The translations under genes were made by a program, and so were the position numbers. Positions 5,597 through 8,767 of a stretch of 10,933 bases of DNA are shown in pieces. How positions within the stretch are numbered: position 1 is the stretch's first letter; each line of letters begins with the position of its first letter. Where the stretch lies: IMG/VR virus record IMGVR_UViG_2690316233_000003; one strand, written 5' to 3'. The notes beneath the pieces were generated by a model that saw nothing but the letters and a program-made list of their open reading frames with translations, did not search any database and was not told the DNA's origin. The stretch is from a virus. Lineage: Duplodnaviria > Heunggongvirae > Uroviricota > Caudoviricetes.

Positions 5597-5687
5597 GAGA
5601 CAATAATACGATATGTACTTTTGGAATGCAAACAAAAAATACATCTTGTGCATGGATGGTTTTAGTACAGAGCGTAATAATAAGGAT
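5597..5687. promoter_or_regulatory. OR region: divergent pR (toward cro) and pRM (toward cI) with operator half-sites AGTAC...GTA(C/A)T
   Basis: Minus-strand pR: -35 TTGCAT (plus 5626-5631), 17-bp spacer, -10 TATTAT (plus 5603-5608). Operator-like 15-mers at 5605-5619 (revcomp AGTACATATCGTATT) and 5664-5678 (AGTACAGAGCGTAAT), related to the OL site AGTACAAATCGTACT. A possible weaker third site lies near 5636-5650. The pRM position was not resolved. Confidence 0.55.
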
Positions 5688-6347
5688 ATGAAAATGAAAT
5701 GGTATGAACTGGCTAGATCCAGAATGAAAGATCTCGGCATAACTCAAGAGAAGTTGGCTGAAGAGCTTGGTATGACGCAGGGTGGAATTGGTCACTGGTT
5801 GCGCGGATCTCGTCATCCATCTCTTGACGAGATTGGTGTGGTGTTTAAATACCTTGGTATTGATAGCGTCTCATTCAACCACGACGGTACATTTTCACCT
5901 GTTGGCGAATACTCATCTATCCCCGTTAAAAAACAATATGAGTACCCTGTTTTTTCTCATGTTCAGGCCGGGATGTTCTCGCCTGAGCTTAGAACCTTTA
6001 CCAAAGGTGATGCGGAGAGATGGGTCAGTACAACCAAAAAAGCCAGTGATTGTGCGTTCTGGCTTGAAGTTGAAGGTAATTCCATGACCGCACCAACAGG
6101 ATCCAAGCCAAGCTTTCCTGACGGGATGTTAATTCTCGTTGACCCTGATCAGGCTGTTGAGCCAGGTGATTTCTGCATAGCCAGACTTGGTGGTGACGAG
6201 TTTACCTTCAAGAAACTGATCAGGGATAGCGGTCAGGTGTTCCTACAACCACTAAACCCGCAATATCCAATGATCCCATGCAATGATAGCTGTTCCGTTG
6301 TAGGGAAAGTTATCGCCAGCCAGTGGCCTGAAGAGACATTTAGTTAA
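5688..6347 (+). CDS. cI: CI-type prophage repressor (HTH N-terminal domain + LexA/S24 self-cleaving C-terminal domain)
   Basis: The C-terminal two-thirds ([38 protein letters not shown]...GNSMTAP...[26 protein letters not shown]...) is near-identical to lambda CI, including the Ala-Gly cleavage site and the Ser/Lys dyad. The N-terminal HTH domain differs from lambda ([23 protein letters not shown]). The start could be 5688 or 5694 (leaderless or weak SD); the track start 5613 is rejected. Confidence 0.9.
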
Positions 6348-6377
6348 CAGCCTCACCACTCTAAAGCACACAACAAT

Positions 6378-6407
6378 AACCCGACCTTAGTGTCGGGTTT
6401 TCTTTTT
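6378..6407 (+). terminator. intrinsic terminator downstream of cI
   Basis: AACCCGAC-cttagt-GTCGGGTT stem-loop followed by TTTTCTTTTT. Confidence 0.6.
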
Positions 6408-6459
6408 CCAAAATATAAACCCATTAAATACAAAGCGTTATAAAAAACCAATTATATTT

Positions 6460-6501
6460 AGAACATTTTGTATTGACTCAATAAAGTACAAATCGTACTA
6501 T
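6460..6501 (+). promoter_or_regulatory. pL-like promoter with OL operators
   Basis: -35 TTGACT (6473-6478), 17-bp spacer, -10 TACTAT (6496-6501). Palindromic operator AGTACAAATCGTACT (6485-6499) lies in the spacer and -10; a second related site at 6460-6474 overlaps the -35. Located upstream of nutL and N. Confidence 0.55.
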
Positions 6502-6541
6502 TTAGCCATCAGCAGGACGCACTAACCACCATGAAGGTGAT

Positions 6542-6571
6542 GCTCTTAAAAATTAAGCCCTGAAGAAGGGC
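6542..6571 (+). promoter_or_regulatory. nutL (boxA + boxB)
   Basis: boxA-like GCTCTTAAA at 6542-6550 and boxB hairpin GCCCTGAAGAAGGGC at 6557-6571, matching lambda nutL as I recall it. Confidence 0.85.
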
Positions 6572-6681
6572 AGCATTCAAAGCAGAAGGCTTTGAGTAGC
6601 GCGAAATGCAGCTGCAAGACAGCAACCGTGGAGATAAGCATCACGGCGCGTTACTCAAAGCTAACTGACAGGAGAATGACC

Positions 6682-6813
6682 ATGAATAACGAAGCGCTTA
6701 AAGAAATGATTGCGAAACTCCTTGAGGACGCACGCCGAATTCAAGAAGTGGAGCCAAACGCAGGGACACAATCACGTATTGATGAAGCGATGAAGTTGCT
6801 CAAAGGAGAATAA
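6682..6813 (+). CDS. small ORF (43 aa; 45 aa if started at 6676) in the N leader, abutting the N start
   Basis: ACAGGAGAAT SD at about 6669-6675 followed by in-frame ATGs at 6676 and 6682. Translation MNNEALKEMIAKLLEDARRIQEVEPNAGTQSRIDEAMKLLKGE. Stop TAA 6811-6813 is 1 nt before the N ATG. The longer track ORF 6592-6813 has no SD at its start. Confidence 0.45.
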   Translation: MNNEALKEMIAKLLEDARRIQEVEPNAGTQSRIDEAMKLLKGE

Positions 6814-6814
6814 A

Positions 6815-7141
6815 ATGGATGCACAAACACGCCGCCGCGAACGTCGCGCAGAGAAGCAGACTCAATGGAAAGCAGCAAATCCCCTGTTGGTTGGGGTAAG
6901 CGCAAAACCAGTTAACCGCCCAATTCTCTCGCTGAATCGCAAACCGAAATCACGAGTAGAAAGCGCACTGAATCCGATAGACCTTACGGTGCTGGCTGAA
7001 TACCAAGAACAGATTGAAAGCAACCTGCATCGTATTGAGCGCAAGAATCAGCGCACATGGTACAGCAAGCCACGCAGTGAAATGGGTGTGACTTGTGTTG
7101 GTCGCCAGAAAATTAAATTAGGCAGCAAACCACTTATTTGA
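6815..7141 (+). CDS. N: antitermination protein N (lambda-type)
   Basis: Translation MDAQTRRRERRAEKQTQWKAANPLLVGVSAKPVNRPILSLNRKPKSRVESALNPIDLTVLAEYQEQIESNLHRIERKNQRTWYSKP... carries the arginine-rich boxB-binding motif and is near-identical to lambda N from memory. SD AAGGAG at 6803-6808. Confidence 0.95.
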   Translation: MDAQTRRRERRAEKQTQWKAANPLLVGVSAKPVNRPILSLNRKPKSRVESALNPIDLTVLAEYQEQIESNLHRIERKNQRTWYSKPRSEMGVTCVGRQKIKLGSKPLI

Positions 7142-7151
7142 GGACTGATAC

Positions 7152-7394
7152 ATGAGAGTAAAAACTATGGGCGCAAGCCCATTAAGCGGTCGTATTTTTC
7201 AAGGAACATTAAACACTGAAAAAGGAATGTGGGTAGGAAAGAAAGAAGATGTCACCGAACAGGCAGTTAAGGCAGTAGCTGAACACATGATGATAAAAGA
7301 CCAGAAATATGCATACGAAACGAAGGATGGCAAATGGCTGATAATAAGTCATCAAATAGTTGATAAATTACCAGAAGAGTTTATTGCTGATTAA
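7152..7394 (+). CDS. hypothetical protein (80 aa), first gene of the AT-rich accessory block after N
   Basis: ATG 7152 with GAGGA 8 nt upstream. Visibly AT-richer than the flanking conserved genes. No recognisable motif. Confidence 0.55.
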   Translation: MRVKTMGASPLSGRIFQGTLNTEKGMWVGKKEDVTEQAVKAVAEHMMIKDQKYAYETKDGKWLIISHQIVDKLPEEFIAD

Positions 7395-8420: not shown

Positions 8421-8495
8421 GCGCGGCTTTACCGCATACCAATAATGCTTCACGAGAGGCATTTTCGTTATGCAATCAAATATAAGGAGTTACCC

Positions 8496-8630
8496 ATGAT
8501 GCACTTTCAGCTCGCGGGTAGCGGCGTCATGTCCGCTTTCTACCCGCACGAATCTGAATTATCACGCCGAGTTAAACAATTAATCAGAGCAGCAAAGAAA
8601 CAACTGGAGGCGTTATGCGCAATGAAATAG
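8496..8630 (+). CDS. cIII: CIII-like protein (FtsH inhibitor family; P22 C3 position)
   Basis: AAGGAG at 8484-8489, ATG at 8496. Translation MMHFQLAGSGVMSAFYPHESELSRRVKQLIRAAKKQLEALCAMK; the central amphipathic helix resembles lambda CIII (PSESLLERITRKLRDGWKRLIDIL). The track start 8445 lacks an SD. Confidence 0.7.
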   Translation: MMHFQLAGSGVMSAFYPHESELSRRVKQLIRAAKKQLEALCAMK

Positions 8631-8767
8631 CCATCAATCACCAGATGCTTCGTGCTGCACAGAACAAAGCAGTAATAGCCAGATTTATTGGTGATTCCAA
8701 AATGTGGCTTGAAGCAAATAAAGCGATGAAATCAGCTATCAACCTTCCGTGGTATCGCAGGAAATGA
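8615..8767 (+). CDS. kil: Kil-like small protein (50 aa; host cell-division inhibitor family)
   Basis: Not in the track. GGAGG at 8606-8610, ATG at 8615. Translation MRNEIAINHQMLRAAQNKAVIARFIGDSKMWLEANKAMKSAINLPWYRRK shares the I-A-x-F-I-G-D-x-K-M...EA motif I recall from lambda Kil. Position between cIII and arf/erf matches P22. Confidence 0.6.
   Translation: MRNEIAINHQMLRAAQNKAVIARFIGDSKMWLEANKAMKSAINLPWYRRK

Follow-up and report, generated by a model that had tools for sequence, protein, structure and literature searches.

The window analysed here (the whole 10,933-nt stretch of the IMG/VR virus record IMGVR_UViG_2690316233_000003, Caudoviricetes) carries a lambdoid immunity and early-left region whose pL operon lies on the + strand, and in it a small open reading frame (ORF) of 43 codons occupies the interval between the nutL site and the gene for the N antiterminator. 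An initial annotation, made from the sequence without database searches, had described a 43-45 codon ORF that follows the ancestral N ribosome-binding site (RBS) and is itself followed, after a single nucleotide, by N. Both statements agree with the coordinates determined here: a Shine-Dalgarno (SD) sequence AGGAG at 6670-6674 precedes in-frame ATG codons at 6676 and 6682, the frame ends with TAA at 6811-6813, and the N start codon stands 1 nt past that stop at 6815-6817, which gives the junction the form TAAaATG. The elements involved are:

6670-6677, + strand: first copy of the octamer AGGAGAAT, the ancestral N SD, now serving the small ORF, 7 nt from ATG 6682
6682-6813, + strand: small ORF, 43 codons plus TAA (6811-6813), product MNNEALKEMIAKLLEDARRIQEVEPNAGTQSRIDEAMKLLKGE
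6804-6811, + strand: second copy of the octamer AGGAGAAT, the SD for N, within codons 41-43 and the stop of the ORF, 6 nt before the N ATG
6815-7141, + strand: N antiterminator gene, 108 residues (Pfam N36, PF11438, E value 6.2e-26; alignment with lambda and HK542 N)

Counted from ATG 6682, the ORF product has 43 residues, and counted from the in-frame ATG 6676 it would have 45. The upstream codon lies only 1 nt past the SD and was rejected as the start because of that spacing and because the homologues begin MNNE or MNxE; ATG 6682 matches the homologue starts and is spaced 7 nt from the SD, as is the start of N in lambda. A 73-residue ORF beginning with TTG at 6592 was rejected on the same homologue starts, its frame being merely open through the leader. 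At the other end, the purine-rich AAGGAG (6803-6808) sits within the last ORF codons, and the N protein encoded beyond it carries a lambda-type arginine-rich motif (ARM), MDAQTRRRERRAEKQ.

Boundaries of the insert and its early-left surroundings

In lambda (J02459) and HK542 the aligned sequence reads …ACAGGAGAAT-CCAG-ATGGATGC, directly into N (with a longer left context, …AAAGCTAACTGACAGGAGAAT-CCAG-ATGGATGC; the N side is also given as ATGGATGCAC), in keeping with the initial annotation, in which the lambda sequence runs straight into the N start codon. The window reads …ACAGGAGAAT-GACC-ATG(43 codons)…AAAGGAGAAT-AAA-ATGGATGC. Relative to the HK542-type phages, CCAG is thus replaced by 137 nt (6678-6814), and the N start lies 133 nt further downstream than in the lambda and HK542 arrangement. 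The inserted stretch measures ~134 nt. The leader alignment proposed in the initial annotation for confirming the insertion boundaries was carried out: positions 6585-6677 are 100% identical to the short leaders of HK542, HK244, SfI, ev243 and phi458, which then enter N, and from there on the window diverges. The counterpart leader in lambda is also structured, but at ~200 nt it is a long leader; it was dropped as a reference because the window leader matches the short HK542/SfI/HK244 type.

The insert is flanked by the 8-nt direct repeat AGGAGAAT at 6670-6677 and 6804-6811, and the presence of the octamer at both junctions indicates that the SD of N is a second copy of the ancestral one, now spaced at 6 nt in place of the former 7. 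The AAGGAG inside the end of the small ORF, which had been described as a new SD, was therefore correctly located but is a duplicate of the old one. Relatives of the ORF that have no N after them end …AAA GCA GAA TAA or …AAA TCA GAA TAA, from which it follows that most of the octamer is native to the 3' end of the ORF; microhomology between this end and the N SD may have guided the recombination. On the strength of these alignments, we conclude that the small gene has been placed by recombination exactly between the SD of N and its start codon.

Upstream of the insert, the early-left region comprises the following features:

5613-6347: LexA/CI-type repressor gene, followed by its terminator at 6378-6399
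6473-6501, + strand: pL-like early-left promoter, TTGACT-17-TACTAT (consensus scan; alignment with the lambda and HK542 pL transcripts)
6541-6571, + strand: nutL, with boxA TGCTCTTAA at 6541-6549 and the boxB hairpin GCCCTGAAGAAGGGC at 6557-6571 (alignment)
6588-6662, + strand: structured N leader (minimum free energy and centroid folds, partition function)

Transcription from pL probably begins near 6508 (ATCAGCAGGACGC, matching lambda pL), and the HK542 record labels the equivalent promoter site 'similar to coliphage lambda PL'. By alignment, the window nutL equals lambda nutL except for the first boxA base, which is T in the window and HK542 and C in lambda; boxB is identical to that of lambda nutL and forms a hairpin in the predicted fold, and the lambda record annotates Nutl at the corresponding site. 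In the predicted leader fold an outer stem of 16 bp (6588-6603 with 6647-6662) surrounds a pair of small hairpins and stops 8 nt short of the first SD copy, and the fold of the entire 358-nt stretch 6503-6860 has a z score of -3.2. The stem arms are AGTAGCGCG/CGCGTTACT in the window and HK542, GGGTGTGTG/CACACACC in lambda and GGGTGTCGTG/CGCGACACC in locus L012, which carries a diverged allele of the ORF; within each of these leader types the arms stay complementary despite the change in sequence, and such natural covariation supports a conserved leader helix. An Rfam scan of 6300-7200 found no known RNA family, and a consensus scan of the + strand over 6502-7141 found no promoter- or terminator-like site, hence none between the ORF and N.

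Downstream of N lie, in order, genes for DUF7446, DUF2528, cIII, kil, erf, a 127-residue ORF and anti-RecBCD (Abc2), identified by Pfam scan except for the 127-residue ORF. The window's cIII occupies 8445-8630 (Pfam cIII, E value 4.6e-30) and probably starts at the internal MMHFQLAG…; within 8445-8767 it overlaps kil (Pfam Lambda_Kil) by ~16 nt (8615-8630), the two forming a tightly packed pair in the same operon. Searched as a whole, the window is matched best by mosaic E. coli prophages, whose coverage does not exceed 76%. At the C-terminus of the window N (7060-7141), the last ~25 residues, …YSKPRSEMGVTCVGRQKIKLGSKPLI, match HK542 and differ from lambda, …YSKPGERGITCSGRQKIKGKSIPLI. Sequence comparison indicates that N is itself mosaic, the ORF-linked N alleles showing at least four different C-termini.

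Conservation and predicted fold of the small protein

The ORF product is identical to RefSeq WP_001701111.1, a 'hypothetical protein' annotated in E. coli TW14425, E94 and 503440, and belongs to PHROG 32391, a family listed as of unknown function (E value 3.1e-34, 117.8 bits, residues 1-43 on profile positions 1-43 of 43). It shares an N-terminal module of ~40 residues with phrog_30817, phrog_12693 and phrog_2982, all uncharacterised, which bear variable C- or N-terminal extensions absent from the window ORF. Protein searches returned 217 clusters at 90% identity and 113 clusters at 50% identity among 1.84 billion representatives, all of them short proteins. The family is found in Escherichia, Shigella, Salmonella, Klebsiella, Enterobacter, Citrobacter, Serratia, Pantoea, Providencia, Edwardsiella, Hafnia and Lelliottia, and its phage hosts also include Pectobacterium, Cronobacter and Aeromonas. 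A member is present as well on the Vagococcus contig L105. A further protein, P0005 (83 residues, partial, on a 542-nt contig), is 95% identical to the ORF and was called from an open frame that enters it from upstream through the N leader; its Ligilactobacillus salivarius label almost certainly reflects contamination by E. coli prophage DNA.

Across the family, a core of ~37 residues, LKxxIAxLLEDAxRxQxxEPNAGTxxRI, is nearly invariant, being kept in temperate phages as well as prophages of Enterobacterales and Aeromonas, and the tails vary widely; in an alignment of 81 sequences A11, D16, N26, T29, R32 and I33 are invariant. The ratio of nonsynonymous to synonymous substitution rates (dN/dS, Nei-Gojobori) is 0.05-0.15 at dS 0.5-1.3 against the alleles of L012, L024, L002 and L013, taken from pairs with unsaturated dS; against the Pectobacterium and Serratia homologues synonymous sites are saturated and amino acid identity is still 60-75%. 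All 15 loci with the window allele retain an intact frame, as do the diverged alleles. Low dN/dS together with homologues conserved across genera makes the ORF more than a chance frame, and these comparisons lead us to regard it as a real gene under strong purifying selection. The view that it is a fortuitous frame or a decaying, functionless remnant could draw on its shortness, its annotation as merely 'hypothetical', its rarity in E. coli and the defective appearance of several of its host prophages; against the many synonymous changes at so low a dN/dS, the core conserved from Escherichia to Aeromonas, the frame kept intact in every locus and a confident fold prediction, we attach next to no weight to it and take the conservation analysis to have effectively refuted it.

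AlphaFold2, run on the 81-sequence alignment, predicts a helical hairpin at a mean pLDDT (predicted local distance difference test) of 92.5, with helices at residues 3-23 and 27-42 joined by the EPNAGT loop, so that the small helical protein gene which the initial annotation had placed between nutL and N is borne out by alignment and by fold prediction alike. Hydrophobic residues recur in a heptad pattern (L6, I10, L13, A17 and I20; I33, A36 and L40), and a hairpin of 43 residues cannot bury its hydrophobic face alone, which points to a dimeric or partner-bound state. The conserved polar residues K7, D16, R19, Q21 and R32 are candidates for a binding surface. A Foldseek search of the BFVD returned only members of the ORF's own family, the longer family members yielded no fused Pfam domain when scanned for one, and a literature search found no mention of WP_001701111.

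Genomic contexts of the ORF and its family

Among 5,426 complete E. coli genomes, 882 contain a lambda-type N 5' region and just 5 have the ORF-then-N layout, so that ~0.5% of lambda-type N genes in this set have the ORF. No such layout was found among INPHARED phage records; it recurs in six IMG/VR contigs, one Logan contig and one metagenome contig. Three diverged N-linked alleles can be distinguished, namely the window type, that of L012 (91% amino acid identity) and that of L024 (88%), at dS 0.5-0.75. Their DNA differs by ~10-14%, in the ORF as well as at the start of N, the N 5' regions being 88-90% identical. In all three, the ORF stop and the N start remain 1-2 nt apart, and the final ORF codons contain a purine-rich SD. 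Judged by this divergence, the arrangement is old and maintained and not a one-off. Pattern scans of IMG/VR and JGI metagenomes for further N-linked alleles returned only the known alleles and chance matches, and a scan of genome contigs gave just 10 distant loci.

The cassette recombines among prophages that differ in repressor, leader and N C-terminus, and several of the prophages hosting the ORF look defective. In the E. coli E94 prophage (L009, 3213-3587), N is an in-frame chimera whose first 18 codons are those of a lambda-type N (ARM MDAQTRRRERRAEKQAQW) and whose remainder is a second, full-length N-type protein that resembles P22 gp24 and has an ARM too (GNAKTRRHERRRKLAIERD). The nutL boxB of this locus reads GCGCTGACAAAGCGC, which is P22-like, and the left arm of its leader stem is mismatched with the right arm. 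To judge from these sequences, the small-ORF cassette seems to have recombined into L009 along with the start of lambda N.

Beyond this layout, the usual place of the family is promoter-proximal in an early-left operon, whether N is present or not. Rac-like prophages show the order ydaS/ydaT, repressor, DUF1391 (ydfA-like), homologue, kilR, recE, the homologue being the second gene past the repressor. In L063 (2785-3198) and ~60 similar Rac-like loci in IMG/VR, the core has no start codon of its own and lies within an ORF of 121-137 residues after the ydfA-like DUF1391 gene, and in L014 the same slot holds a stand-alone version of 44 residues that begins 1 nt past the DUF1391 stop. In the literature searched, the term DUF1391 occurs in a single paper, a Shigella/enteroinvasive E. 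coli association study. K-12 YdfB (Qin) and YdaG (Rac) occupy the same early-left slot next to the DUF1391-type genes ydfA and ydaF, as the homologue directly follows the ydfA-like gene in Rac-like prophages; homology to them was rejected at hhalign probabilities of 0.2% and 0.5%, respectively. The core also forms the N-terminus of the first annotated gene past the DicA-like repressor in Cronobacter phiES15 and Aeromonas pAEv1818, heads a 118-residue protein upstream of kil in the Stx-type phages 75/02 Stx and POCJ13, and in one allele is located after a P2-type gpA gene. Members from Pectobacterium phages have no N-like gene nearby.

Among 31 distinct alleles, seven have an Arg-rich ORF within 700 nt, and credible N-type neighbours are confined to three lambda-type alleles, the EC12 type and two Serratia-type alleles. 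In E. coli EC12 (L002, 2595-3200; also L025 and L026), a close allele of 45 residues, ending K-A-E, lies downstream of a different N that starts MTRRTQFKGNSRSRRRERLKAK and is of the H-19B/933W-like kind; in L026 the ORF is followed by ral. On its two sides the EC12-type ORF has a diverged copy of the lambda N RBS region (ctaaccgacaTgagCatgacc) and the 3'-terminal 23 nt of a window-type N gene (ggcagcaaaccacttatttgagg), flanks which suggest that N was deleted from a former ORF-N unit. In L054 (3130-3307) and L085 (3130-3310), both from IMG/VR, an unannotated ORF of 45-46 residues with the strongly Arg-rich motif MRITLTKRERRRARREIRTQRRRA… lies 40 nt downstream of the homologue, a GC-rich hairpin (GCGCCCTGCTGGGCGC) intervening; this ORF could be a short N-like antiterminator. 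The small-ORF alleles of these two loci are closest to that of Serratia phage BZS1, and the related L005 and L084 are without the Arg-rich ORF.

Predicted control of the junction and possible role of the product

In lambda, N and Nus factors assembled at nutL repress N translation, the leader between being highly structured (PMC5725501, citing Wilson et al. 1997, 2002). Repression that depends on N, together with cleavage of the leader by RNase III, is known for lambda only (PMC5725501). The window shares with that system the same pL, a nearly identical nutL, a leader stem ending by the RBS, an AGGAG SD with 7-nt spacing and the N start, but here the RBS beside the stem starts a different gene, and N stands behind a putatively translated ORF and is served by the second SD copy. 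The RBS behind the leader now belongs to the small gene, so that this gene should be the direct target of any lambda-like control.

Partition function calculations predict the ORF SD to be mostly open (mean P(unpaired) ~0.7) and the N SD to be paired, with P(unpaired) of its GGAG at 0.03-0.13 in the window and 0.03-0.2 across the N-linked alleles. The predicted partner in the window is:

6718-6726, + strand: CTCCTTGAG, codons 13-15 of the ORF, predicted to pair with CTCAAAGGAG (6799-6808) and so to mask the N SD

The N SD is predicted paired in L012 too, and in L024 with a different partner. N-linked alleles combine CTC CTT GAG, complementary to the SD, with GGAG, and close alleles without a following N read CTT CTT GAA or CTT TTA GAA and have lost the GGAG; the N-linked alleles may be a single clade, so this codon association is not independent evidence. 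In translationally coupled gene pairs of phage and bacterial operons, only a few nucleotides separate stop from start, and the upstream gene contains the SD of the downstream one. The window junction is built in this way, and the SD of N is predicted to be sequestered; it differs in that this SD is strong enough for independent initiation and that its masking does not stand out from recoded sequences. As modelled, N is probably translated partly by coupling to the small ORF. The coupling put forward in the initial annotation is therefore plausible, given the 1-2 nt gap in three alleles and the predicted pairing, but its masking component, indistinguishable from that of synonymous recodings and possibly seen in a single clade, is unproven.

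Taking cis and trans evidence together, we favour, with a probability of roughly 60%, an explanation in which a real gene has been brought in by recombination, N is partially coupled to it, and its product is an early protein with a host target and no N-specific function. The upstream octamer copy, next to nutL and the leader stem, would drive the small gene and the downstream copy would serve N; as the first pL cistron, the small gene would inherit the control exerted on the adjacent RBS by N, Nus factors, nutL and the leader. N would be translated in part by ribosomes that end at the TAA and either restart 1 nt on or unmask the N SD, and in part by independent initiation at its own SD copy. 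The 43-residue hairpin, probably dimeric or partner-bound, would bind a conserved host protein early in lytic growth and act in host takeover or another accessory role, by analogy with the small pL-operon proteins Kil, CIII, Ral and Gam, with no specific action on N. The ORF is comparable to these in size (~40-70 residues), early pL position, predicted helices and accessory, mosaic distribution, but has no sequence or profile similarity to them, and the window contains cIII and kil as genes of their own.

Several points weigh against parts of this explanation. On the cis side, 12-14% of synonymous recodings mask the N SD equally well or better, so that the masking is not significant; the differing partner in L024 deprives it of support from covariation; and, as the SD of N is itself strong and followed by an A-rich spacer, the contribution of coupling may be small. 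On the trans side, the proposed role is a guess from class analogy. Searches of Pfam, NCBIfam, PADLOC and PDB sequences with the ORF product gave no matches, and Foldseek against the PDB returned nothing below E = 1, only non-significant alpha-hairpins. The top match, LUZ24 gp4 (PDB 6yse), a 46-residue Pseudomonas phage protein, is a helical hairpin of like size (template modelling score 0.71), but at E 1.7 and 23% identity it is not significant, any alpha-hairpin would match, and the likeness is an analogy and no evidence of homology or of a common function; gp4 is an early protein that inhibits the host silencer MvaT. Finally, the family adjoins three N-type genes (the lambda type downstream, the H-19B-like N upstream in EC12 and the Arg-rich ORF downstream in the Serratia type), which makes a link to antitermination possible.

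The most direct competitor in cis holds that the ORF is a regulatory upstream ORF in which the act of translation matters and not the product: ribosomes would melt the helix that hides the SD and reinitiate at TAAaATG, leaving N set by the nutL-proximal RBS and its autoregulation preserved or retuned. The conserved gap and internal SD of the three diverged alleles, the opposite predicted states of the two SDs, the N-linked codons complementary to the SD and the position of the ORF RBS where lambda has its regulated N RBS would all suit it. We nonetheless consider it doubtful, since the peptide is strongly conserved in many contexts without N, so that selection acts on the product, and since the masking and codon evidence have the weaknesses just described; what it explains fits within the favoured explanation as a secondary cis effect. 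A leader peptide whose sequence is dispensable and which is conserved only together with the gene it regulates does not fit the same distribution, the core being kept in many loci without N.

A trans-acting regulator specific to N or to the lysis-lysogeny switch, of the kind the initial annotation suggested, would modulate N activity or stability or the choice between lysis and lysogeny, for instance by binding N, Nus factors or Rho, or by protecting CII as CIII does. Three different arrangements beside N-type genes, the earliest possible expression as first pL gene and the amphipathic, helical nature that the protein shares with CIII speak for such a factor, but most alleles, in Rac-like, DicA-type and P2-like elements, have no N gene nearby, which makes an N-specific regulator unlikely; N clearly works without the ORF in all but the ~0.5% of lambda-type cases noted above. 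The Pfam cIII profile has no match to the ORF product, a substitute for CIII was rejected because a separate cIII is present, and the family contexts, together with the window's own cIII and kil, favour an accessory early protein over an N-specific factor or a CIII replacement. The claim of a new N- or switch-specific regulator is accordingly not supported, the protein belonging to an existing family, PHROG 32391, mostly found without N. Nor is the gene a moron, an autonomous inserted gene, as it is embedded in the pL transcript and the scan of 6502-7141 found neither promoter- nor terminator-like sites of its own. A bolder proposal, which we rate as quite unlikely, is that the core represents a new class of early effector on host transcription elongation or termination, or on translation (Nus factors, Rho, the ribosome); its placement by three unrelated N-type genes would then reflect cooperation with antitermination, and its wiring as an N-autoregulated first pL cistron would let its dose track that of N.

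In part, this analysis extends what is already known: the family is catalogued in PHROG though uncharacterised, and both mosaic insertion of small genes and translational coupling are known kinds of events. New, as read from the aligned loci, is the rare layout in which another cistron has captured the regulated RBS of N and N retains a duplicate SD. For translational control by a transcription elongation complex, the lambda N leader serves as a classic model, and the window offers a natural variant of it, one in which the reach of nutL-tethered repression, and how coupling can transmit it, could readily be tested. The ORF also draws attention to a compact and very conserved family of small proteins whose genes lie promoter-proximally in the early operons of many enterobacterial prophages, relatives of Stx phages among them. 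Such conservation in a phage protein of some 40 residues usually points to a conserved host target. As it stands, the locus is a neat but modest case of mosaic evolution; its interest would rise considerably should the target turn out to be a component of the machinery for transcription or translation.

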